Shown here: piece after piece, positions 15,268-61,025 of the stretch | How the letters are laid out: the number at the start of each line of letters is the position of its first letter | Numbering within the stretch: the stretch's first letter is position 1 | Source: Thermofilaceae archaeon | Lineage (GTDB): Archaea > Thermoproteota > Thermoprotei > Thermofilales > Thermofilaceae | Assembly: GCA_038861545.1 (NCBI GenBank) | Contig: JAWCCZ010000001.1 | Location: forward strand, 32,001 to 96,000 | DNA: 64,000 bases | Direction of reading: 5' to 3' | Notes under the pieces: generated by a model | What the model was told of the DNA's origin: nothing | Database searches by the model: none | The model's input: only the letters and a program-made list of their open reading frames with translations | Program-made: the position numbers and the translations under genes

Positions 15268-16768
<1,501 letters not shown>

Positions 16769-16932
16769 TCCCAGTTCCTAGTTTCTTGAGCGCCGCGCCG
16801 AACTATTTTTATTAGATGCAACCCGAAAGGTTAAACCTTTCGGGTGAAGGGCTGAGCGATCCAGCTATAGCTGGATCGCTGTGAGTGCCGCGCATAGGTT
16901 AGCGGTCACGTAGATCGGGCTTGCATCGGCAA

Positions 16933-20004
<3,072 letters not shown>

Positions 20005-20117
20005 GAGTCGATGTAAGCTCGAGCGTAACGGTTGCTAACCTATGTGCGGTACCTCTATATCTTTTGATTTCATATAACTTAGTTAAGGTTATATTTTAGT
20101 AAAGGTCGTAAATATAC

Positions 20118-22403
20118 ATGCTAAGTTCCAAGTTGCTAAGGAGGTATAAGGTGTTAAAGCTCTACTCGTTGCTACTCTTACACGTGAGGTTATTAATATT
20201 CGTTCTCCTTCTCTCAAGTCTCGGCATTATTCTAGGCGTATTACCTCCGCTTGCAACTAGGGCAATAATTGATGATGGCATTGGTAAAAGAAACATTAAC
20301 GCACTTATCTTTAATTCACTACTTCTAGTAGTACTTAACACTGCGTCGACGATCATCGGAGCTTTAGGAGGATATTACCGAACGATTCTAAGCGGTAAGA
20401 TAGCTCTTGAATTGAGAACCAAGGTCTTTAAGAAAACTCTAGAGTTAGGTGTAGAACTTTACGAGGCGGCAGCGGTCGGCGATGTAGCTACTAGGATCTA
20501 CGGCTATGTTGATAGGATACAACGCTTCATAGTTGATAGTTTTGAAAACGTGGTTATAAACTCCTTAAGGCTTATCTTCATGCTAGCAATAATATTCGCA
20601 CTTAATGTTAAATTATCGCTAGCGCTTCTAGCGCCCCTCCCTCTATACATATGGGGTCTAGTATGGTATCAACCACGGGTTAGGATATTATTCACTAAAA
20701 GGTGGTCAAGGGTTTCAAGAATGTCAGCGTACATAACATCAACTCTTAACTCCGTTTTATTAGTTAAACTAACCGGAAAGGAGAAAGTTGAAAGTAAACG
20801 TTTTGAAGATTTAGCAAACGATGTTTTTAAGACAGAAATTGAAACTGCGAAATATGGTTTATTAGTTTTCCCTTGGTTAAACTTACTGTTAGCTTTAGCT
20901 TCTGTTGGTGTGATGTACTTTGGCGGCTTAATGGTACTGTATGGAGAATTAAGCACAGGAACTTTAATGGCTTTTTTAGCTTACATCTGGCAAGTATACG
21001 CGCCAATCCAAGCTCTCACAGGCATTATACCTCAATTAGCTGAAGCAGAAGCCGCTCATGAAAAACTCAGCGAGCTTCTGGAAGCATCACCTAGGGTGAC
21101 TGAGGAACCCGATTCAGTAGAATTGAAAATAAAGGGTAAAGTTGATGTTATGAATCTATGGTTTGGGTATTCAGCAGAAAGACCAATACTCAAGGGAGTA
21201 AATCTTTCGATAAAGCCTGGAGACGTTGTAGGCGTCGTGGGCCCTAATGGAGCTGGCAAGACAACATTAGTTCGTATGCTGGCTAGGCTCTACGATCCAA
21301 TTAAAGGAGCTGTTATGCTTGATGAAGTCGAAATGCGGAGGATTAAACTAGGCTGTTTAAGGCGTAACGTTATGTTAGTGCCTCAAGAGCCTATGTTACT
21401 TTCAGGCAGTGTAGCTTATAACATATCTTATGGTGTTGAAAATCCAGATCCCTTAACGATTCTTTATGCTGCATGGTTATGTGGGGCGCATCGCTTCATA
21501 GTAGAGCTCCCCCTAGCTTACGACAGCGATGTTGGAGAGCAGGGTAGAGCTCTTTCAGGCGGGCAACGCCAACTTATCTGCTTAGCTAGAGCGCTTCTCC
21601 TTAAGCCTAAAGTGTTGCTTCTTGATGAAGCCACGAGTAACGTACATGTAGAGCTGGAGGAAGTAATAATGATGCGCTTGCTAGGTTATCTGAGGGATAC
21701 GACAATTATAGCAATTTCCCATAGACCTACGCTTAATAAGTTCATGAATAGAGTTGTAATGATGAGCGATGGTAAGGTATTAAATGAAATCAAAGGGGGT
21801 CTCGACAGTAGGCCTCCAATGCCACCGATACCCAGAATAATTGATGCAAATGATCTGAATATAATAGATCGCGGAGCTTGGCTTGAAGCCCATGTTAAGG
21901 AACACGTATTAGACGAACTTCGTGCAAGATTACCTTTCCCCTTAACTTACCCGCGGCTTCTTGTGCTTTATAGAGATCCAGATGACATGTTGGTAGTCGA
22001 TGACTGGACAAAGCTTAATTTAGAGTCTAAGAGAGCTGTGCTTAAACATGTTTTGCGAGAGCATGGATTAATGCTGGCTAGGCTTCACGAAATTATACCG
22101 CTTAGTGGTAGAGGTAGGGCACTCTCCTTAAATGTAGTGCTTGAAAACGAAGAAGGTAAAATAGAAATTTCGTTATCACCTGGCGGCCTCCTGTTACTTA
22201 ACAAAAACCTAGTGATCGTAACTCCAACTAAAGTGTACATAGTGGATTCAGAGGCATCTAATGGTAGAGCGATTAATAGTGCCTACGCGCTTGCAGCCGA
22301 GCCACCCAGCCCCTTTAGGTACTACGACTTCACGTTGCTGGTAAAGGAAATTAAGGAGAACTCCCAAGACTTTCGGGATGCCATTAGGGCCGCTGGAAGT
22401 TGA
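20118..22403 (+). CDS. ABC exporter-fold half transporter (TMD+NBD) with C-terminal DUF1854-like domain
   Basis: Six-TM domain, GPNGAGKT, LSGGQRQ, LLLDEATS, SHR. C-terminal extension (RLPFPLTYP..LVLY...LVVDDWTKL...SKRAV) resembles the 57240 protein. Confidence 0.85.
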   Translation: MLSSKLLRRYKVLKLYSLLLLHVRLLIFVLLLSSLGIILGVLPPLATRAIIDDGIGKRNINALIFNSLLLVVLNTASTIIGALGGYYRTILSGKIALELRTKVFKKTLELGVELYEAAAVGDVATRIYGYVDRIQRFIVDSFENVVINSLRLIFMLAIIFALNVKLSLALLAPLPLYIWGLVWYQPRVRILFTKRWSRVSRMSAYITSTLNSVLLVKLTGKEKVESKRFEDLANDVFKTEIETAKYGLLVFPWLNLLLALASVGVMYFGGLMVLYGELSTGTLMAFLAYIWQVYAPIQALTGIIPQLAEAEAAHEKLSELLEASPRVTEEPDSVELKIKGKVDVMNLWFGYSAERPILKGVNLSIKPGDVVGVVGPNGAGKTTLVRMLARLYDPIKGAVMLDEVEMRRIKLGCLRRNVMLVPQEPMLLSGSVAYNISYGVENPDPLTILYAAWLCGAHRFIVELPLAYDSDVGEQGRALSGGQRQLICLARALLLKPKVLLLDEATSNVHVELEEVIMMRLLGYLRDTTIIAISHRPTLNKFMNRVVMMSDGKVLNEIKGGLDSRPPMPPIPRIIDANDLNIIDRGAWLEAHVKEHVLDELRARLPFPLTYPRLLVLYRDPDDMLVVDDWTKLNLESKRAVLKHVLREHGLMLARLHEIIPLSGRGRALSLNVVLENEEGKIEISLSPGGLLLLNKNLVIVTPTKVYIVDSEASNGRAINSAYALAAEPPSPFRYYDFTLLVKEIKENSQDFRDAIRAAGS

Positions 22404-23739
22404 AATAAGAAGCCGTGAGGGTAAATATTTGAGTGCAAAGAACTTTGACCTTTATGTTTCTAAAAACATAGCTGAACTTGAAAGAGAGTTCGGGGTAGTC
22501 TATGACCCTGTTCAGCTTTTTCCAGAGGATCCTTCATTCGCACGAGCGGTTTTCGAGGCTGGTTTTAAGCTACTTCTAGATACAGGAGTCTACGTTATAG
22601 AGCAGGAGAGAATCGTTAAGTTCAGCGAGGAGGAGTTGAAAGAAGCTTTAAGAAATTGTAAACCAGTGTTAACCATAGGCGAAGGAAAAGAATCAAAGCA
22701 GCTTCAATTTCGAGACGTGGGGTCAAAGACTCCTCCGCTTGTATTTGGAGGATATGCAGGAACGCCAGTTTCAGAGGAAGATTATGAACCTAGTGCGCTT
22801 TCCTACGCCCTTGAACCGCTTGTAGATGCTATTGATCACGGCAGCATCTCGATGGTGCACGGCATTAATTCAGTCAACGGAGCTCCAAGTGAAGTTGAAG
22901 CCACTGCTACAGAGGTCAAGCTACTTCGCAAAGCGTTGTTAGAGGCTGGGAGACCAGGTATGCATATACTAGCATGCGAGAGCAGCGTTAGCGCTAACGG
23001 AAACTTAGCTGCTATGTCCATGGGTCTTTTGAAACAGAGTGACGCGCATCTTATTCCAATTCTTAACGAATTAAAGGTGAATTATTCCCAGTTAGTGAAA
23101 TCAGAGGCTGGATTACTTTGCGGAGTTTACAACGCGGCTCTTGTGGATCCAATTATCGGGGGTTTTGCGCGTGGAGCAGCTGGCACAGCGATATGTGCCG
23201 TAGCAGAAGTATTAGCTTCTATAGTAATATACAGTGCAGCGTACGTTTTAATCCATCCTTATCACATTAGATTTAAGGCCACAAGTGCTAAAGAGTGCCT
23301 CTGGGTTGAATGCGCGGTAGGGCAAGCTGGTCATTACATTAGTCTGCCACTTATAGGTGATGTATGGCCAGCAAACGGTGGCGGAGTTATCGAAATGTTA
23401 TACGAGATTGCGGCCAACTCTGTAGTGGCTACAACAAGCGGCTTGAATCTTCTAGGTCCTGCACCGGCTAACGGTGAAAAACCCAATGGATGCGGGCTTG
23501 AGGCTAGGCTAATGGCTCAGGTGGGTCGAGCGGTTACTGGCTTAAAACCAATAGAAGTGGTGGATGTTGTTAAGGAACTTGTGAAGAAATACGACGCGAC
23601 TCTATTAAACCCTAATCCGGGCTTACCTTTCCGCGAGCTCTATAATATCTATGAGCGTAAACCGGCAGGCCACTGGTATGAAAAATACACTGGTGTGAAG
23701 CGAGAGCTCGAAGATCTTGGTGTACAGTTATCCGAGTAA
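22378..23739 (+). CDS. mtmB: Monomethylamine:corrinoid methyltransferase MtmB homolog, non-pyrrolysine
   Basis: FEAGFKLLLDTGVY, ERIVKFSEEE, AGRPGM, NELKVNY, IIGGFARG and G.PF.ELY match MtmB; no in-frame TAG. Confidence 0.88.
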   Translation: MPLGPLEVEIRSREGKYLSAKNFDLYVSKNIAELEREFGVVYDPVQLFPEDPSFARAVFEAGFKLLLDTGVYVIEQERIVKFSEEELKEALRNCKPVLTIGEGKESKQLQFRDVGSKTPPLVFGGYAGTPVSEEDYEPSALSYALEPLVDAIDHGSISMVHGINSVNGAPSEVEATATEVKLLRKALLEAGRPGMHILACESSVSANGNLAAMSMGLLKQSDAHLIPILNELKVNYSQLVKSEAGLLCGVYNAALVDPIIGGFARGAAGTAICAVAEVLASIVIYSAAYVLIHPYHIRFKATSAKECLWVECAVGQAGHYISLPLIGDVWPANGGGVIEMLYEIAANSVVATTSGLNLLGPAPANGEKPNGCGLEARLMAQVGRAVTGLKPIEVVDVVKELVKKYDATLLNPNPGLPFRELYNIYERKPAGHWYEKYTGVKRELEDLGVQLSE

Positions 23740-23770
23740 ACGTTTTTGAGTAAGGATAATTATTTTCACT

Positions 23771-24364
23771 GTGAGTCTACCCAAGCTTATCTACAAAGCA
23801 CGCCAAGGGGATAATGTAGGTACTGCATTGGGAGATCTCGAAGAAAATTTGGAATACCCTATTTTCGAGGAGGGCAAGGGGATTACCGGTACCATTAGGG
23901 TTATCACACCAGTGTTGAAGTGGCATAAAGTGGCTCTAGAAGAAGTTTACGAAGATGAGAAGGTAATAAAATTTGGTTATCCTATAGGCATCGCTGTAAC
24001 TCAGATTGTACCTGGTACAATTGTTCACATAACGAACATTATACTGGATTCACGCTTCGACTTCAAATCCCTTGTGAGGAAGGGTTTCGTACTAGGAGAG
24101 GCGACAGCAAAAATAGAAAAAGGAGGAATTTTAAGAATATCTAGAAATTTTCGGCCACTGCATCCAGACCTTAAAGATGAACCGGTTCGAAGTAAGGTGG
24201 GTATAGCAGCCACGTCTATAGCAGAGGGTGCAGCTGTTAGGCTAGGCAATATTATAGATTTAAACCCTGAGCGGTGGCATAATGAAAGGTATAAGCGGTT
24301 AATCAGGGATTTTTACCGTTTGCTGAAGGCTGGTTTAATCGATTTTACGAGGGTTCAGGTGTGA
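23771..24364 (+). CDS. SAF-domain protein (UxaA/SuyA small subunit-like, tandem SAF)
   Basis: DNVGTALGDL, HKVAL..V...EKVIKFGYPIG.A...I.PG..VH..N, followed by a second G.A...I..G repeat. Confidence 0.8.
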   Translation: MSLPKLIYKARQGDNVGTALGDLEENLEYPIFEEGKGITGTIRVITPVLKWHKVALEEVYEDEKVIKFGYPIGIAVTQIVPGTIVHITNIILDSRFDFKSLVRKGFVLGEATAKIEKGGILRISRNFRPLHPDLKDEPVRSKVGIAATSIAEGAAVRLGNIIDLNPERWHNERYKRLIRDFYRLLKAGLIDFTRVQV

Positions 24365-24367
24365 TAG

Positions 24368-25651
24368 ATGGATAGTGTCAAAGCATACCATAGGGAGCAA
24401 AGAAAGATGTATGGAATACGAAACCACATACTTATACTTCCAACAACATTATGCGTAAATAGAGTGGCCGAATGTATCAAAGAGGAATTTAGGAACGAAC
24501 AATGGGGTGAGAGTGGCGAGAACAGGGTTGTTCTAATACGGCATAATAGTGGTTGTTGTCACATAGGTTTCGATAAAAATATGGCTTTTAAAGTACTCAT
24601 GGGGATAGCGTCTCATCCTAATGTACATGGTGTACTTCTAGTTAGTCTTGGGTGCGGCCAATTTTGCAAAAAACCATTAATGCCAGGGGAGAGCAGGAAG
24701 ATTAACTTAGAGGCTTTCAAACTTTATGATAGATTGGTGAAAAGGGGGGTTAAGGTTTTTTGGGTTAACGTTCAAGAAAAAGTTTTACTTCGAGAATATT
24801 CGGATTCTCTCGACCAGGCAATAAACTTAGGCATGAAATTTATCAAAAAGTTAGTTGAAGAGGCAGTAAATGCTAAACGAGTAGAGACGAGACTAAATCG
24901 ATTTGTTATTGGCGTAGGGAATGGGGCATCCGATCCAACATCAGGAATTTTCGCTAATCCGGCACTCGGCTATCTTGTAGATCACTTGGTGAAAGGCGGT
25001 TCCAGTGTTGTCTTCTCGCAGACGATGGAGGTGCTCGGAGCTGAAGATTACCTTTTCGCCAAGTCAGAAAACGAAAAAGTGACGCATAAGTTAAAAAGAT
25101 TGTTGGAAGTAGCTTCAGCTTTTAAGGAAGCATTGCAAGAATACGCTGAGGAATCTGATCCTACTCCCGGCAACATAGCTAGTGGTATATCCACGCTGAC
25201 TGAAAAATCGCTTGGCAGCGTGCTTAAAATTGGTCATGATGCCAATGTTAAATTATCCGATGTTATTCCTTACGCTAACCAGGTACCTAGAGGCGGCGGC
25301 CTCTACTTTATGGATACCCCTGGTGAGGATGCTTTATCAATAACCGGTATGGTAGCGGGTGGAGCCCACGCCGTTATTTTTACAACTGGACTTGGCACAC
25401 CGGTTGGATCCCCAGTCAGTCCTGTTATAAAGGTAACAGCAAATAGGGAAACGTATAAAAAACTTAGGAGTTTGATTGATATCTGTCTTCCTATAGAGGA
25501 AATATTCTATGAGAGTAGGAATCTCCAAGAAATTGCTCTAAAGCATTTGCATCCTTTACTCCTAGATATAATGTCAGGTGAAAAGCTTGCTTGTAATGAA
25601 AAGCTAGGTTTCACGGATTTTGATATTAGAAGCTACTGGATGAGGGCTTAA
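24368..25651 (+). CDS. UxaA/GarD/SuyB family hydro-lyase large subunit
   Basis: GIRNH, H..GC, HPNV.G.L.VSLGC, SD..SG..ANPALG, PTPGN..SG.STL.EKSLG and FTTGLGTP.G motifs. Confidence 0.88.
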   Translation: MDSVKAYHREQRKMYGIRNHILILPTTLCVNRVAECIKEEFRNEQWGESGENRVVLIRHNSGCCHIGFDKNMAFKVLMGIASHPNVHGVLLVSLGCGQFCKKPLMPGESRKINLEAFKLYDRLVKRGVKVFWVNVQEKVLLREYSDSLDQAINLGMKFIKKLVEEAVNAKRVETRLNRFVIGVGNGASDPTSGIFANPALGYLVDHLVKGGSSVVFSQTMEVLGAEDYLFAKSENEKVTHKLKRLLEVASAFKEALQEYAEESDPTPGNIASGISTLTEKSLGSVLKIGHDANVKLSDVIPYANQVPRGGGLYFMDTPGEDALSITGMVAGGAHAVIFTTGLGTPVGSPVSPVIKVTANRETYKKLRSLIDICLPIEEIFYESRNLQEIALKHLHPLLLDIMSGEKLACNEKLGFTDFDIRSYWMRA

Positions 25652-25663
25652 CTAACCATGCGA

Positions 25664-26482
25664 TCAAGGATGAGCAATTCCTTTCAAAGATATTATCGGA
25701 GGTGGCTGGCGTTTATGAATGGTGGCTTTTACCCTTTTCAACACTTTTTCTACAAGTTCAGATGGAAGACCAGTAACTTCAGATATCCGAGATGGTTCAA
25801 TGTTTAGGTCAAAGACTGCGTATAATATTTGGTCAATATCCTCATACTTAAAACCTAACTCATTTTCAGCTTTTTGTCCAGGCCATAATCTAGGACTACT
25901 GGGTTTAGATGCGATTTTATCGGGCAGGCCTAAATACTTTGCCAGTTCTCTAATTTGAGTCTTGTAAAGATCGCCTATCGGCAGCAAGTCTGCTCCACCA
26001 TCTCCGTGTTTAGTAAAATAGCCTAGAAGCAACTCGCTTCGATCACCCGTACCGAGAACCAGTCCGTTAAACCTGTTAGCTGTGTAATACAAGATGGTCA
26101 TTCTAACCCTGGCTTTAACGTTACCAAGCGCGACGTGGTCAAGGGGGTCAAAAAAAGGAATTGAAGTGCTTACGGCTTCGACAGCTTTATCAATTGGTAC
26201 TATGCTTGATTTAAGATCCAGTTTTTCAGCAAGGTACAAGGCATCCTCTACATCATCCTTTGGTGTAGAAGAGGAGTCTGGCATGATAAGTGCTATGACT
26301 TTCTCTCCTCCAACAGCTTCAGCTGCCAGCGTAGCCACAACAGATGAATCAACACCGCCGCTTAAACCTATAACGTAAAGATTTGCTTTACTTTCGATTA
26401 AGTAGTTTTCCAAATATTTTTTTATCTTATTCCTAATTATTTCGTAGTCTAGGCCCCTGAGTTTTTCAAGTAGCAAAGGCAT
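25664..26482 (-). CDS. nadE: NH3-dependent NAD+ synthetase
   Basis: GLSGGVDS, GNVKARVRM, GTGDRSE..LGYFTKHGDG, PIGDLYKT motifs. Confidence 0.96.
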   Translation of the reverse strand: MPLLLEKLRGLDYEIIRNKIKKYLENYLIESKANLYVIGLSGGVDSSVVATLAAEAVGGEKVIALIMPDSSSTPKDDVEDALYLAEKLDLKSSIVPIDKAVEAVSTSIPFFDPLDHVALGNVKARVRMTILYYTANRFNGLVLGTGDRSELLLGYFTKHGDGGADLLPIGDLYKTQIRELAKYLGLPDKIASKPSSPRLWPGQKAENELGFKYEDIDQILYAVFDLNIEPSRISEVTGLPSELVEKVLKRVKATIHKRQPPPIISLKGIAHP

Positions 26483-27087: not shown

Positions 27088-28449
27088 ATGGTGCCGCAGT
27101 TGACAACGCCATGCCGAAGAAGGAAGAGAGTCCTGATAATGGGCGCCGGCGGGCGTGATTTCCATAACTTTAATGTTTGTTTCAGGGATAATGATGAATA
27201 CGAAGTTGTGGCTTTTACCGCTTCTCAAATACCTTTCATTGAAAATAGAGTATACCCACCGGAGCTGGGCGGCACTCTATACCCTAACGGCATTCCAATA
27301 TTCTCAGAATCAAAGCTTGAAGAAATTATCAAAAAATATGGGGTAGATGAAGTTGTTTTATCCTATAGCGATCTTGTTTGCGAAGATGTGTTATTCAAGA
27401 TGAGCAGAGCTTTGGCAGCTGGTGCTAGTTTCAGAGTCTTAGGAGTCAGAGAAACCATGCTACACGCTCAAATCCCCGTTATTGCAGTTTCAGCGATAAG
27501 AACAGGTGCAGGTAAAAGTAGTGTTGCACGTAAAGTGGTTAAAGTATTGAGAGAGAGGGGTCTAAAGCCAGTTATAGTCAGGCACCCGATGGCCTACGGC
27601 AATTTGCGGGAAATGAAAGTTCAAAGAATAAGTTGCCTTGAGGATTTAGACAAGTACACATACACAATAGAGGAGCGTGAAGAGTTTGAATGGCATATTC
27701 AAGAGGGAACAGTGGTTTATGCTGGTGTAGACTACGAGGCAGTTTTGAATGAGTTAGATAAAGAGAAATTCAATGTTATAGTGTGGGACGGAGGTAATAA
27801 TGATTGGCCCTTTATAAAGCCGGATCTTCACATAACAGTTATTGATCCTATGAGACCTGGCCATGAGATCAGATCGTTTCCAGGTCTCGTCAACTTGATA
27901 ATGGCAGATGTTGCATTAATAAACAAGGCTAATTTAGTAGATAAAAACGTAATAGGACAAACCTTAGAGAGGATAAAAACGATTAATCCAAAAGCTCACA
28001 TAGTTATCGCATCATCGGAGGTCACTGTAGATAACCCGGAGTTAGTACGCGGCTATCGAGTACTAGTTGTTGAAGATGGCCCCTCTGTAACTCATGGTCA
28101 CTTGAGCTTTGGTGCAGGATATACAGCAGCCCTTAAGTATCATGCAGCGGAGATAATTGATCCTAGACCATATGCTGTAGGCAGTTTAAAAAGTGTCTAT
28201 GAAGAATACCCACATATAGGTCCAGTTCTACCGGCGATGGGATACGGACCTCAACAGATTAAGGATCTCGAAGAAACTATTAATAGAGCAGTAGCTGATG
28301 CTGTCATACTTGGTACCCCTACGGATTTATCAAGATATACTAGGATTAATAAACCGGTTGTCAAAGTTAAGTATGAAATACACGAACTTGAGGGTTCGCT
28401 ATCCAAAATAATCAATGATTTCCTAGATAAGGTAGATAATAGTGTCTAA
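27088..28449 (+). CDS. COG2403 P-loop ligase (cDPG-synthetase family), arginine synthetase ArcE-like
   Basis: IMGAGGRDFHNFN, AFTASQIP.I..R.YPPEL, RTGAGKS, RHPMAYG, TIEEREE, WDGGNND, EDGP..THG, LPAMGY motifs. Confidence 0.8.
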   Translation: MVPQLTTPCRRRKRVLIMGAGGRDFHNFNVCFRDNDEYEVVAFTASQIPFIENRVYPPELGGTLYPNGIPIFSESKLEEIIKKYGVDEVVLSYSDLVCEDVLFKMSRALAAGASFRVLGVRETMLHAQIPVIAVSAIRTGAGKSSVARKVVKVLRERGLKPVIVRHPMAYGNLREMKVQRISCLEDLDKYTYTIEEREEFEWHIQEGTVVYAGVDYEAVLNELDKEKFNVIVWDGGNNDWPFIKPDLHITVIDPMRPGHEIRSFPGLVNLIMADVALINKANLVDKNVIGQTLERIKTINPKAHIVIASSEVTVDNPELVRGYRVLVVEDGPSVTHGHLSFGAGYTAALKYHAAEIIDPRPYAVGSLKSVYEEYPHIGPVLPAMGYGPQQIKDLEETINRAVADAVILGTPTDLSRYTRINKPVVKVKYEIHELEGSLSKIINDFLDKVDNSV

Positions 28450-29314
28450 ACACAACGATTTTTATCTAACGGTACATTATCCAACTTTCCTAGGCTTCCC
28501 AGCGAATTGGGTTTCCTCTAAAGCTGTCATAATTGGAATTCCATTTGATGCAGGATCCACCTGGAAACCTGGGTGTAGATTAGCCCCGCTGAAAATCAGG
28601 GAGGTTTCTCAGAATATAGAAACATATGACCCTATAGGGAAAAGGGATGCTGCTACGTTACCGGTAGCTGATGCTGGTGACGTGATTGAGTGTATACTAC
28701 CGAATAGGATGATCAGCGTTGTGGAGAAAGTTGTTTCAGTATTTTATTCTGAAAATAAGCTTGTCGCAAGTTTAGGTGGAGATCATACAGTAACATTAGG
28801 TGTTCTAAAAGGACTGAGTGAGCGAAAGACTTTAGTTATGTTTGATGCTCATCTAGACTATAGGAATGAGTACCCAGTAGGGGAAAGAATAACTCACGCT
28901 ACGGTGCTAAGGCGAGCCTGCGAATGGGATTTAATAGAGTACGCACTATTAATAGGTGTAAGAGGTGTTTCGAGAGAGGAGGTTGAAACTTTAGAGAAGG
29001 AAGGGCGAGCAAAAATTATGTATGCGTGGGCTACCGAAGAAGAGTTAAAAGATGCGTTTAGCACCCTTAACAGGAGAATTTACATTAGTGTAGATATAGA
29101 TGTGCTAGATCCCTCTATAGCTCCTGGGGTCACTTGTCCTGAACCTGGAGGGCTCACCTATACGCAGTTATGTAAAGCTCTCTCTGCTCTATCAAGCTTC
29201 AAGGTACTAGGGTTAGATATAGTAGAAGTAAACCCTTTATTAGATATCAATGATTTAACTAGCTATGTCACTGCTAAACTTTTATCTAAGCTGTTAATTA
29301 ACTTAGTAAGCTAA
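28442..29314 (+). CDS. speB: Agmatinase (ureohydrolase family)
   Basis: GIPFD, PG.RLAP, GGDHTVT, FDAHLD, DIDVLDP..APG...PEPGG, DIVEVNP motifs. Confidence 0.9.
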   Translation: MSKHNDFYLTVHYPTFLGFPANWVSSKAVIIGIPFDAGSTWKPGCRLAPLKIREVSQNIETYDPIGKRDAATLPVADAGDVIECILPNRMISVVEKVVSVFYSENKLVASLGGDHTVTLGVLKGLSERKTLVMFDAHLDYRNEYPVGERITHATVLRRACEWDLIEYALLIGVRGVSREEVETLEKEGRAKIMYAWATEEELKDAFSTLNRRIYISVDIDVLDPSIAPGVTCPEPGGLTYTQLCKALSALSSFKVLGLDIVEVNPLLDINDLTSYVTAKLLSKLLINLVS

Positions 29315-55057: not shown

Positions 55058-57268
55058 ATGTCATCTCAAAACGATAACGCTATTACACTATACCCCGTCC
55101 TTGAGGAGCTGCCGTCACTTGTCAAGGAGTTGCTTGAAAACGGCGAGGAGGTAATAGCAATAGCTCGAACAGATCTAATGGGCAGTGATTACGGTGAGGA
55201 ATTGATCGTACTGACTAACAGAAGGGTAATGGCGGTAGCTGAGGGTCGCAAGCCGCGTGCAATACCCTTAGCCAAAGTCACAGCTGCTGCTATAAGGGGT
55301 TACATTAATAGTTGCGTCCTGGTTATTGATACAGACGAAGGGTCTAGTAGCTTCGCCGTCTTCACGAGAGCGCGGCTTGAAGCCTTTGAGAAATTCGTTA
55401 CACTGACTAATAACATGGTTATTGGAGGGGGACAGTATCAATTAATGAGGCAAGTCTTAGATAGAATAAAAAGAGTGAGCGTCAATAGAAGCGGAAGAAC
55501 TGTTCTAGTAAGGTTGCTCGGTTTATTAAGGCCAGTTATGTTACTTCTCATTTCATCTATACTAGTCGCAGTTGTCATACGTTTACTGAACATGGTTCCC
55601 CCCTATCTTATGAAATCCCTTATTGACGAAGTGCTTTTAAATAAACAGTCTAGCCAGTTATTCTACATCATAATAGGTTTGCTAGCCGTCAACTTGATAA
55701 ACACAGGTTTAGGAACAGTTAATGCATATCTCAATACAAAATTTAACGTTGTTATAGCTAATACATTGAGATCTAAGATCTATTCTAAGTTACACGAACT
55801 CTCGCTCTCGCACTACGATCAATTCGGTAGCGGTGGACTCTGGTCGAGAATCATGGATGATGTAGGTCGCGTACAATGGGCGATGCAAGCATCCTTCCGT
55901 GATCTTTTTATTAACGCTGCAACGGTAGCGTTCATTGGCTTTACCCTAGTTACTTTAAACATTCAATTGACTTTAATTGTATTACTGCCAATTCCTGTGT
56001 CAGTGACTGCTACCACAATTTATCGCAGGTTATCTAGCAGATATTATCAACGCATGTGGCGAAGGTGGTCTAGAATAGTCTCTGTTATCTCAGATACGAT
56101 AAATGCCGTGATACTTGTAAGAAGCTACGGCAAGGAGAGCTCCTTTAAGGATTCATTCGAAAGGTACCAGGAAGAGTTCGAGAAAGCTCAGATGGATGTT
56201 TTCAAATTTGAGCAGCAGATATGGCCTGCCTCCGGGCTCGCCTTTACAGCTAGTAGTCTCCTTGTCTGGTGGATAGGAGGTAACCAAGTGCTTCAGGGAG
56301 TTATCAGCTTAGGTACGCTGACGGCGTTCACCAGCTATATGTGGATGTTCTATAGCCCAGTTTTCGGCCTCATAGATAACATAAAGAATCTTCAGATTCT
56401 CAGCATGTCAGCTAGCAGGATCTTTGACATATTAGATCTCGAGCCAGATATAATAGTTGCCCCGGAAGCCAAGGACGTTGAAATAAGAGGAGATGTAGCG
56501 TTCAACAACGTCTGGTTTACGTACGATGGTATTCATTATGCGCTCAGAGGGGTGGATGTCAAGATCAAGCCAGGTGAAAGAGTAGGCTTGGTGGGACCAA
56601 GCGGATCCGGTAAAACAACCCTAGCTAAGCTTCTACTGAGGCTTTATGAGCCACAGCTTGGCTCTATTACGTATGATGGCGTTGACGCTAAAGAAGTTAC
56701 ATTAGATTCGTTAAAGAGGCAAGTAGCTGTTGTTTTACAGAACCCGGTTCTCTTAGATACGACTATAACTGAAAACATATCTTTAGGCAAGAACAGAGTT
56801 GAACCAGAGGAGATAATTTACGCGGCAAAGCTTGCTCGAGCGCACGACTTTATCATGCGTTTTCCTGAAGCCTATGATTTTGAGGTAGGAATGCAAGGGT
56901 CAAGGCTTTCGGGAGGCGAGAGGGCTAGGGTTGCGTTAGCAGCTGCATTGCTAAAGAATCCTAAAGTACTGATACTGGATGAACCAACCGCAGCGCTTGA
57001 TGCATTAACAGAGGATGAAGTTACTGAGGAGCTTGAGAGGCTTACTAGAGGGAAAACCACGATTATCATAGCACACAGGCTGTCTACCTTAAGATTTGTG
57101 GATAGAATTATTGTAATGGATAAAGGAATAATAGTTGAAGAAGGTTCGCATGAAGAGTTGCTTAGGCATGACGGGCTATATAAAAAGTTATGGGAAGCCC
57201 AACTTAAAGGTTTAACTAGGATGAGTCAAGCTGAGGTGAATGAGCTCTATGCTGCACAAAGAGCTTAA
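55058..57268 (+). CDS. ABC exporter-fold half transporter with N-terminal PH-like domain
   Basis: About 140-aa N-terminal domain (TDL...YGE..IVLTNRRV), six-TM domain, GPSGSGKT, LSGGE, ILDEPTAALD, IAHRLST. Confidence 0.88.
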   Translation: MSSQNDNAITLYPVLEELPSLVKELLENGEEVIAIARTDLMGSDYGEELIVLTNRRVMAVAEGRKPRAIPLAKVTAAAIRGYINSCVLVIDTDEGSSSFAVFTRARLEAFEKFVTLTNNMVIGGGQYQLMRQVLDRIKRVSVNRSGRTVLVRLLGLLRPVMLLLISSILVAVVIRLLNMVPPYLMKSLIDEVLLNKQSSQLFYIIIGLLAVNLINTGLGTVNAYLNTKFNVVIANTLRSKIYSKLHELSLSHYDQFGSGGLWSRIMDDVGRVQWAMQASFRDLFINAATVAFIGFTLVTLNIQLTLIVLLPIPVSVTATTIYRRLSSRYYQRMWRRWSRIVSVISDTINAVILVRSYGKESSFKDSFERYQEEFEKAQMDVFKFEQQIWPASGLAFTASSLLVWWIGGNQVLQGVISLGTLTAFTSYMWMFYSPVFGLIDNIKNLQILSMSASRIFDILDLEPDIIVAPEAKDVEIRGDVAFNNVWFTYDGIHYALRGVDVKIKPGERVGLVGPSGSGKTTLAKLLLRLYEPQLGSITYDGVDAKEVTLDSLKRQVAVVLQNPVLLDTTITENISLGKNRVEPEEIIYAAKLARAHDFIMRFPEAYDFEVGMQGSRLSGGERARVALAAALLKNPKVLILDEPTAALDALTEDEVTEELERLTRGKTTIIIAHRLSTLRFVDRIIVMDKGIIVEEGSHEELLRHDGLYKKLWEAQLKGLTRMSQAEVNELYAAQRA

Positions 57269-57731
57269 AGTCCTAGATCCTAAGAATATGCGCGTCATTG
57301 CAGCATACTTAGATGAAGTTAATATAGAGATCAACGGCCAGCTGATACAGGGAGTGAGACCACGTAAACCTTTTCCATATTCACACCCTGAGATCGTAAT
57401 TTTCTATAAAGGTAACGAAGAGATCGGTATTTTGAGAGACTACAGGATGCTAGACGACGAGTCAAAAAGCACGCTGGAGAAGGCTTTAAAGGTAGTGTAC
57501 TTCATGCCAGAGATCAAAAAAGTTCTAAATATACGCTGGGCTCAAGGGAGGTACGAGTGGTGTGTTGTCACCGATAAAGGTGAGGAAAAGTTCGAGACAT
57601 GGAGCAGATGCGTTCGAGTCCTTTTGGATGGCAGGCTAGTCGTAAAGGATATCTATAGCCGAGCATATATTGTCGAGCATCCAGAGAAGCTCGATGCCAA
57701 AAGTAAGGCGCTATTGACGATGATGATCTAA
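57240..57731 (+). CDS. DUF1854 family protein
   Basis: V.P...FP.S.P...I.......EIG.L.D...LD..S...LE..L...YF.PEI, W.V.TD.G...F, D.....Y.......LD..S motifs; overlaps the ABC gene. Confidence 0.82.
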   Translation: MSSMLHKELKVLDPKNMRVIAAYLDEVNIEINGQLIQGVRPRKPFPYSHPEIVIFYKGNEEIGILRDYRMLDDESKSTLEKALKVVYFMPEIKKVLNIRWAQGRYEWCVVTDKGEEKFETWSRCVRVLLDGRLVVKDIYSRAYIVEHPEKLDAKSKALLTMMI

Positions 57732-59654: not shown

Positions 59655-61025
59655 GTGTGCGTGAGAAAATATACACAGTTAGCTTACAAAGATGCAAATA
59701 ATATGGTATTCGGAAAGGCCTTACACCCGCTTCGATACGGCCTCGGGTTAAGTGTAGGTGAATGCCGAGTTATTCCTGAACTGAAGTATTGGCCTAACCG
59801 CACTGCGGATGAGTCCGGTAGGCTAGTAGCCGAGTTCGTTTCGATAACGCGCGATGCGTTGGAGAGGGCTATTGATCTAGGTGTTCAGGCGCTACAGCTA
59901 GAGACTGAGCTTAACCATGTAGCTACTCTGAATCCTCGATTGGCAAGGGAGATAGTTGAAGCTCAGAAAGGATTGATGGAAAGCTATCACAAGGAATACG
60001 GCATTGCGCTTGCACTAAGAGTTACAATCGCTGACGTGCGATGGACAAGGGAAGTGAGCAAAGAGGAGGCTTTAACTAGAATGTTAGAAGCATTTGAGGA
60101 GACTGCCGCCGCTGGGGTGGATGTTGTATCAATAGAATCCATTGGAGGTAAGGAAGTCTCAGATTATTCGATAATAAGGAACGATATTAAAGGTATAATC
60201 CTTTCTTTGGGTGTGCTAGCACCTCGTGATGTTGAAAAACTGTGGAAAGAAATCTTCAGCATTACGTCGAAATACGGTGTGCTGGCCGGCGGAGATTCAG
60301 CTTGTGGTTTTTCGAATACTGCAATGAAGCTGGCGGGAGGCTTTAAGCAAAAGATGCTCCCCCATGTTCTAGCGGCTGTGGTGCGGGCGATGAGCGCGGT
60401 AAGAACGCTTAAGGCGTTTGAGGCTGGTGCGCAAGGTCCAGGTAAAGATTGTGCGTACGAGAATGTAATTGTGAAAGCGATTACTGGCTACCCGATGGCA
60501 ATGGAGGGTAAGTCAGCGGCTATAGCCCATTCCAGCTTGGTGGGGAACGTTGCAGCAGCCGCCTGTGATCTATGGAGTAACGAGCAAGTTGAAAACTTGA
60601 AGCTCTTTGGCGGCACAGCCCCTCAGGTTTGCTTAGAGATACTTTACTACGACTGCGAAGTCATGAATGCTGCACTAGAAGCGGGATACGAGGAAAACTA
60701 TAGAGAGCTACTAGTATCCTCGAACGCCTGGCGTGATCCTCAAGCATTAGTTTTAGCGCCGCGATTTGCTTGGGAAATTGCCAAAGCTATTGTAATGGAA
60801 AACGATGACTATAGACGCGTACTGAGTGCTGGGCTCAGGGCAGTGGAGCTGATTAATCGAGAGTGGAAAAGTGGGAAATTAAAGCTAGATAGAAGGGAAG
60901 TAGAATACATACATAAACTTGATCAGGAGTTTAAAAGCTTACCCGATGACGAGGAAACTTTTCTAAGCAATGTTGCTACTCTATACGAAAGCAAAATCAA
61001 AGTTAAACTATCGGATTATCTTTAG
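59655..61025 (+). CDS. mtaB: Methanol:corrinoid methyltransferase MtaB homolog
   Basis: FGKA..P...G.G..VG, LETE, SIES.GGKE, GD..C...NTAM.LAGG, GPGKDC.YE, EGK..A.AHS, DLWSNE, YDC..MN, DPQA motifs. Confidence 0.9.
   Translation: MCVRKYTQLAYKDANNMVFGKALHPLRYGLGLSVGECRVIPELKYWPNRTADESGRLVAEFVSITRDALERAIDLGVQALQLETELNHVATLNPRLAREIVEAQKGLMESYHKEYGIALALRVTIADVRWTREVSKEEALTRMLEAFEETAAAGVDVVSIESIGGKEVSDYSIIRNDIKGIILSLGVLAPRDVEKLWKEIFSITSKYGVLAGGDSACGFSNTAMKLAGGFKQKMLPHVLAAVVRAMSAVRTLKAFEAGAQGPGKDCAYENVIVKAITGYPMAMEGKSAAIAHSSLVGNVAAAACDLWSNEQVENLKLFGGTAPQVCLEILYYDCEVMNAALEAGYEENYRELLVSSNAWRDPQALVLAPRFAWEIAKAIVMENDDYRRVLSAGLRAVELINREWKSGKLKLDRREVEYIHKLDQEFKSLPDDEETFLSNVATLYESKIKVKLSDYL

Follow-up and report, generated by a model that had tools for sequence, protein, structure and literature searches.

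A pyrrolysine-free MtmB homolog and a divergent UxaA-type lyase in a lineage-specific gene cluster of Thermofilaceae

A 64,000-nucleotide (nt) stretch of the genome of a hot-spring Thermofilaceae archaeon (the window; host genome G000, 1.63 Mb) carries, directly after its rRNA operon, four genes encoding an ATP-binding cassette (ABC) protein with a DUF1854-like tail, a homolog of the methylamine methyltransferase MtmB, and the SAF and UxaA subunits of a putative lyase (Table 1). We favor, with some reserve, the view that these genes form a lineage-specific cluster, made up of three modules that each have their own history, and not one pathway. Its parts are uncharacterized variants of known families and provide two leads: a methionine synthase fed by a corrinoid protein, with a possible methylpurine demethylase as the methyl source, and a new UxaA subfamily with ties to threonine and threonylcarbamoyladenosine (t6A) genes. 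To our knowledge, methylamine methyltransferase genes in Thermofilum-like non-methanogens have been unexplained since the first genome. The MtmB neighborhoods suggest that methyl groups are scavenged, perhaps from methylated purines, and used to make methionine without folate; if true, mtmB could not safely be taken as evidence that an organism uses methylamines. The link between lyase and threonine or t6A, if functional, would represent new chemistry for the UxaA fold and bear on the fate of t6A or its unstable precursor.

From the genes, motifs, distributions, and neighborhoods observed, we infer co-transcription, the substrates, and a methionine sink in the following arrangement (G, L, and C denote genomes, loci, and contigs of G000, respectively). 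MtmB would strip a scavenged compound of an N-methyl group and transfer this group to the corrinoid protein C4:100447, which an AcsV/RACo-type protein would keep active; MtaB and two MttBs may feed the same shuttle. The methyl group would then pass to homocysteine via the core methionine-synthase-like protein C8:19661. SAF and UxaA would form a two-subunit, iron-dependent α,β-eliminating lyase acting on a small β-oxygenated acid, and the ABC–DUF1854 protein would be an exporter, perhaps pairing with a second ABC/DUF1854 locus.

Layout and history of the linkage

The arrangement described in the initial annotation, four co-oriented and tightly spaced genes right after the rRNA operon, was reproduced: the ABC gene overlaps mtmB by 26 nt, gaps of 31 nt and 3 nt separate mtmB from the SAF gene and the SAF gene from uxaA, and the ABC gene starts 112 nt past the 23S rRNA gene (16932–20005). 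A TATA-like element lies 5′ of the ABC gene at about position 20089; a σ70 promoter scan of the region gave chance-level results, with a model unsuited to archaea.

One outcome that would have refuted the annotation, a linkage confined to this genome, was not observed. The mtmB, SAF, and uxaA genes are contiguous in seven genomes (this one and six relatives) from three sister genera; the conserved block around them includes the rRNA, nadE, PIN, agmatinase, proteasome β, and CPSF genes as well. Phylogenetic analysis placed the uxaA-adjacent MtmBs in one clade (support 100/100), which argues for a single origin of the linkage. Nested in that clade is G015, where the ABC gene overlaps the SAF gene by 4 nt and mtmB is on another contig; this copy spans a 10-N scaffold gap. 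A neighborhood search for recurring uxaA linkage of pyrrolysine (Pyl)-free MtmBs, as envisaged in the annotation, placed uxaA at 0 of 43 distant MtmB loci of at least 6 kb.

The distributions of the two families are separate. MtmB is present in 17 of 22 family relatives and UxaA in 8 of 22. MtmB occurs without a match to this UxaA in 11 relatives (ten family members and one other), several of them complete genomes; in eight relatives where the UxaA query found nothing, mtmB is located beside or close to the corrinoid gene. The lyase type was found without MtmB in four genomes (G008, G026, G033, and G337); for G337, a phylum-wide MtmB search found nothing. Outside the family, UxaA was present in 2 of 37 MtmB genomes vs. 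3.8 expected (Pfam families; Fisher p 0.40).

MtmB and its methyl route

The second gene product matches MtmB (PF05369) over its full length (303 bits, E 3.8e-90, positions 9–449), with full-length homology to Methanosarcina barkeri MtmB (PDB 1NTH/1L2Q; E 3e-67). The position aligned to Pyl202 of the Methanosarcina enzyme is Leu198, encoded by CTA, and is Leu in 52/52 close-group sequences. Pyrrolysine read-through was excluded by the lack of an in-frame stop in mtmB, and no PylS scored above cut-off in a profile search of the genome, all in agreement with the Pyl-free MtmB originally annotated. Glu205, Glu229, and Glu259 are the active-site glutamates of the Methanosarcina enzyme; here, only the equivalent of Glu205 is kept (Glu201), with Leu225 replacing Glu229 and a non-acidic residue replacing Glu259. 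Named close homologs are from Thermofilum, Infirmifilum, and Thermofilaceae, with 50–56% identity in the first two. An MtmB homolog was reportedly described in the T. pendens genome paper, and the Pyl-free Thermofilum homologs represent the same family-wide gene; there, mtmB adjoins a corrinoid gene, and no match to the UxaA query was obtained. A Pyl-free MttB homolog has also been noted in Thermofilum (PMC2933860).

The original proposal of a corrinoid-dependent demethylase in a non-methanogen agrees with the gene content, in which no mcrA, CdhD, or PylS was found. The mcrA gene was found in none of the 41 genomes searched, and methanogenesis was rejected for that reason. Neither CdhD nor a pterin-binding methyltransferase (PF00809) was found in this genome, so a Wood–Ljungdahl methyl sink was also rejected. 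A split MetE was dismissed because the MetE N-terminal domain (PF08267), and with it the folate-binding half, was not found in this genome.

The single corrinoid protein of the genome is encoded adjacent to the AcsV/RACo-type activator (G000:C4:100447-102905; L003 9448-11906). The core methionine-synthase-like protein (G000:C8:19661-20653; L075 895-1887) is a stand-alone MetE-like catalytic domain, in which the zinc ligands His206, Cys208, a downstream Glu, and Cys295 are kept. The same architecture and ligands are found in the core methionine synthases MesA, MesB, and MesC, which take methyl groups from a corrinoid protein (PMC7857596, PMC7005905). Known Mes donors are MtrA or the Wood–Ljungdahl corrinoid Fe-S protein, whereas here the donor would be an MtmC-type protein because CdhD was not found. 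In G004 (L035 5849-12159), one cluster holds genes for a corrinoid protein, an S-adenosylmethionine methyltransferase, a HisC/CobD-like aminotransferase, MtmB, RACo, and the methionine-synthase-like protein; the metagenomic locus L139 has the same clustering of corrinoid gene, mtmB, activator, and methionine-synthase-like gene. The most likely route for methyl groups would thus lead from the corrinoid protein to homocysteine via the folate-independent core methionine-synthase-like protein.

Homologs of the methionine-synthase-like protein occur across the order and may represent a further Mes family; a PDB sequence search with this protein gave no match. The corrinoid and activator genes come directly after anaerobic ribonucleotide reductase-like and activase-like genes. 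Further methyl-transfer genes in G000 comprise one MtaB, two MttBs, and ten UroD/MtaA-family members. The MtaB-family gene is intact and has no corrinoid gene beside it in this non-methanogen. One MttB gene has no in-frame stop and is followed by an amino-acid-permease-like gene (G000:C1:341522-344760). Among the ten UroD/MtaA-family genes, the zinc motif is His-x-Asp-Gly in six and His-x-Cys-Gly in two.

The purine assignment for the MtmB substrate comes from sister clades. At the 43 distant loci, a corrinoid gene was present in 34, a BMP permease in 24, and a BMP binding protein in 20; enzymes were counted over 61 MtmB loci, which gave 12 adenine-deaminase-like, 5 xanthine-dehydrogenase-like, and 3 adenosine deaminase genes. 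The purine-context clades are about 40% identical to this MtmB and their neighbors include BMP-type nucleoside importers; in G024, the mtmB and corrinoid pair adjoins two nucleoside phosphorylases. Residues shared by this enzyme and the nearest purine-context clade are His196, Leu198, Glu201, Asp257, His296, Asp328, and Trp330. Searches for PurC came up empty in this genome and in 14 family relatives, and de novo purine synthesis appears to be lacking in the family. Among possible substrate classes we tentatively rank N-methylated purine bases or nucleosides first; quaternary amines or choline rank below them and seem rather unlikely.

Several observations weigh against the modular arrangement and its purine-fed methyl route. 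The mtmB, SAF, and uxaA genes are kept together in 7/8 clade genomes with gaps of 23–59 nt, even where the ABC gene is inverted; given these short gaps and the survival of the neighbor's inversion, the three genes are probably co-transcribed. This MtmB clade has residues of its own (Tyr126, Cys200, and Glu367), which could reflect co-adaptation. No BMP protein was found in this genome, and queries for adenine deaminase, adenosine deaminase, and xanthine dehydrogenase matched nothing in it; the purine assignment therefore derives from relatives that are about 40% identical and, in many cases, closely related among themselves. The C8:19661 protein scored 44–64 bits against NCBIfam MesA/B/C cut-offs of 258–406 (e.g., 64 vs. 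258). Finally, the genome is 92% complete.

A competing and improbable explanation is that MtmB is an MtqB-like demethylase of quaternary amines (choline or tetramethylammonium) and the lyase an unrelated sugar-acid dehydratase with altered specificity. MtqB, with tetramethylammonium and choline as substrates, is the only non-Pyl MtmB of demonstrated function (PMC13044021), and most characterized UxaA/GarD enzymes are aldonate dehydratases (PMC6336799). The MtqB/MtqC pair of Methanococcoides methylutens Q3c resembles the predicted system here in combining a Pyl-free MtmB homolog with methylation of a separate corrinoid protein. However, that pair operates in a methanogen with coenzyme M as acceptor and an adjacent cognate corrinoid gene, whereas this host has no Mcr and its corrinoid gene is on another contig than mtmB. 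MtqB, which has a Met/Cys/aromatic pocket, also falls in a different branch, close to the Pyl MtmBs, the other non-Pyl enzymes being without assigned function (PMC13044021), and the recurring neighbors identified included nucleoside-type importers but no quaternary-amine transporter.

Methanomethylicaceae-like genomes (L118, L154-L173, family f21) contain tandem, divergent Pyl-free mtmB pairs accompanied by genes for a corrinoid protein and a BMP importer; two of the genomes also carry a TAG-containing mtmB.

The split lyase and its neighborhoods

The uxaA product contains GD_AH_second and GD_AH_C (Pfam). The SAF gene had no Pfam match, either whole or as an isolated segment, and its product is twice the usual length; the N-terminal half superposes on the SAF domain of altronate hydrolase (3K3S, E 2.5e-6) and the C-terminal half resembles a degenerate second repeat (E 5e-4). 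Compared with the wider superfamily, this lyase clade has about 40 extra residues; its large subunits have 409–434 amino acids (aa) and its small subunits 190–250 aa vs. about 100 usual. The long-SAF small subunit accounts for only about 25 clusters at 50% identity. Asn185 occupies the fourth Cys position throughout the clade, and the first three cysteines are kept.

These features differ from those of the wider UxaA/GarD superfamily (altronate, galactarate [6U7L], D-arabinonate, and heteromeric L-fuconate dehydratases and SuyAB; PMC6336799), with which the lyase shares SAF and catalytic domains and three of four cysteines. Characterized dehydratases, mostly acting on aldonates, keep four cysteines (PMC6336799). 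In SuyB, according to a machine-read alignment from the supplement of the same paper, the first three are absent and the fourth is kept, the opposite of the pattern here. Because the Cys patterns differ from both, the lyase is neither a characterized dehydratase type nor SuyAB; membership of the SuyAB sulfolactate sulfo-lyases was rejected although the subunits are split alike, a split also found in Paraburkholderia L-fuconate dehydratase (PMC6336799). Separate genes for the SAF and UxaA subunits were confirmed as annotated, but the suggested likeness to altronate dehydratase or SuyAB did not extend to the Cys pattern. An ordinary altronate or galactarate dehydratase is contradicted both by Asn185 and by the score against galactarate dehydratase GarD (TIGR03248; 157.5 bits, cut-off 730.85). 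Judged from sequence, SAF and UxaA define a rare, undescribed UxaA/GarD subfamily with a predicted change in the iron site. P0172, a 570-aa SAF–catalytic fusion in which the fourth Cys is retained, groups only provisionally next to the Asn clade.

Genes for ThrS or Sua5/TsaC lie no more than two genes from the lyase pair in L095/L202, L201, L103, L203, and G026/G033. The thrS neighbors are of both bacterial and archaeal type and the Sua5 neighbors both long and short, whereas none of 32 canonical UxaA loci has either neighbor. Seeming thrS matches near canonical uxaA were proS cross-matches, as checked in L060 (prolyl-tRNA synthetase); the others fall in the same cluster. For thrS adjacency alone, the family-corrected p is about 0.001 if three cases are independent and 0.21 if two are. 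Only 9–10 contexts of the lyase clade are known, and the pattern was chosen after the fact. In G000 itself, both thrS and Sua5 map far from the lyase genes. No description of a link between this lyase subfamily and thrS or Sua5/TsaC was found in the literature searched. A threonine-like substrate would fit α,β-elimination chemistry. Other contexts point to sugar acids: one clade member lies between a zinc dehydrogenase and a β-galactosidase, and several of the nearest canonical relatives belong to gene clusters for four-carbon acids, of the PdxA/DUF1537-type kinase/LarA kind. We consider a C4–C6 sugar acid and a substrate related to threonine about equally plausible, and neither can be put forward more than tentatively.

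The thrS and Sua5 neighbors also underlie a quite unlikely alternative, in which the genes serve one function, anaerobic modified-nucleoside salvage in a purine auxotroph. MtmB would demethylate N-methylpurines from tRNA turnover for methionine, and SAF/UxaA would eliminate the threonyl group of t6A-type nucleosides or repair the oxazolidinone derived from threonylcarbamoyl-AMP (TC-AMP), which decays to threonine and oxazolidinone (PMC7913687). The purine context of sister MtmBs, the different thrS or Sua5/TsaC types beside the lyase clade against 0/32 canonical loci, the failure to find PurC in the genome and 14 relatives, and a three-gene unit that outlasted inversion of its ABC neighbor are all consistent with such salvage. 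Set against it are the few contexts and post hoc pattern, with a p value that hinges on independence, the distance of thrS and Sua5 in this genome, and an MtmB–lyase link that arose once and was lost in G015; there is also no known UxaA enzyme acting on carbamoyl-threonine.

The ABC protein and other features of the window

The first gene product contains ABC_membrane and ABC_tran (Pfam), with Walker A, signature, Walker B, and H-switch motifs all intact. DUF1854 proteins are reported to work with ABC exporters (bioRxiv 10.1101/072470). A Pfam scan of the isolated tail gave no DUF1854 match and an ESM Atlas search with it no usable match; pairwise comparison with the bona fide DUF1854 gene at 57240–57731 gave 27% identity over 113 aa (E 3e-7), and tails of orthologous ABC proteins had weak scores on PF08909. 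The annotated ABC–DUF1854 transporter thus survives as an ABC half-transporter with a DUF1854-like tail, the tail being degenerate and without a Pfam match. Against NF052233, the DUF1854-associated ABC exporter of cyanophycin-synthetase-like loci (10.1101/072470), the protein scored 314 bits (cut-off 880). Both have an exporter architecture of transmembrane domain (TMD) and nucleotide-binding domain (NBD) with DUF1854 adjacent or fused, but here DUF1854 is degenerate and cyanophycin synthetase is not among the neighboring genes. The second ABC half-transporter of the window, the best paralog, has an N-terminal extension. An inverted ABC gene is seen in one genus, in G007 and the two metagenomic loci L121 and L142; the gene occurs without mtmB in G027 and G029 and is unlinked in other families. 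A role as substrate importer was rejected, given the exporter architecture and the inverted or unlinked position in relatives.

The initial annotation had joined all four genes in one catabolic route, with MtmB demethylating an N-/O-methylated sugar acid, hydroxy acid, or sulfonate, SAF/UxaA dehydrating or desulfonating it, and the ABC protein transporting the substrate. The tight spacing kept in three genera, the ten UroD/MtaA-family genes (a sign of a wide methylated-substrate range), and the β-galactosidase and four-carbon acid contexts of the lyase speak for such a route, but we regard it as very doubtful: the cluster has no downstream kinase, aldolase, or dehydrogenase, the ABC protein is built like an exporter and in relatives is not coupled to the other genes, the Cys pattern is opposite to that of SuyB, and the linkage does not recur beyond one clade. 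A single methyl-sugar-acid or sulfonate pathway is unsupported because the linkage arose only once, is broken in G015, and is absent from the distant MtmB loci, because the two families show no co-occurrence across the phylum, and because the ABC gene is inverted or unlinked in relatives.

Table 1. Coordinates of the cluster, its surroundings, and lyase loci adjoining thrS or Sua5/TsaC
Feature	Position	Strand	Basis or context
16S and 23S rRNA genes	15268–20005	+	Context; conserved syntenic block, same position in relatives
Type IV ABC half-transporter, TMD-NBD exporter architecture with C-terminal extension (761 aa)	20118–22403	+	Profile matches, motifs
DUF1854-like tail of the ABC protein, degenerate and sub-threshold in Pfam	21918–22247	+	Pairwise similarity, weak PF08909 scores
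Pyl-free MtmB-family corrinoid methyltransferase, predicted methyl donor to corrinoid protein (453 aa)	22378–23739	+	PF05369, 1NTH
Leu198 codon CTA at pyrrolysine position	22969–22971	+	Alignment to Methanosarcina MtmB
Extended SAF small subunit: SAF domain, degenerate second repeat, C-terminal helix (197 aa)	23771–24364	+	Structure superposition, repeat comparison
UxaA/GarD-superfamily large subunit, distinct long-form clade; Cys29, Cys63, Cys96 kept (427 aa)	24368–25651	+	GD_AH_second and GD_AH_C
Asn185 instead of fourth conserved Cys; CGGSD motif changed to NGASD	24920–24922	+	Alignment
NAD synthase gene in convergent orientation, at the end of the unit and conserved alongside it	25664–26482	-	Family match, neighborhoods
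Second ABC half-transporter, then stand-alone DUF1854 gene; possible partner of the 20118 ABC protein	55058–57731	+	Closest paralog, 34% identity
MtaB, methanol:corrinoid methyltransferase family; putative second donor to same corrinoid shuttle	59655–61025	+	Family match
Long-SAF/UxaA pair adjoining thrS and/or Sua5/TsaC	L201 3465-8236; L202 3118-8230; L103 7367-11772; L203 2148-4888; L089 7034-10761		

Two further observations concern other genes. A thymidylate synthase with a C-terminal DUF4346 fusion and a long N-terminal extension is encoded at G000:C3:180083-181483 (L207 1587-2984, minus strand), in a genome without a PF00809 match. In the window, a cyclic 2,3-diphosphoglycerate synthetase-like gene overlaps an arginase/agmatinase-family gene (27088–29314), and this pair is kept in the syntenic block.

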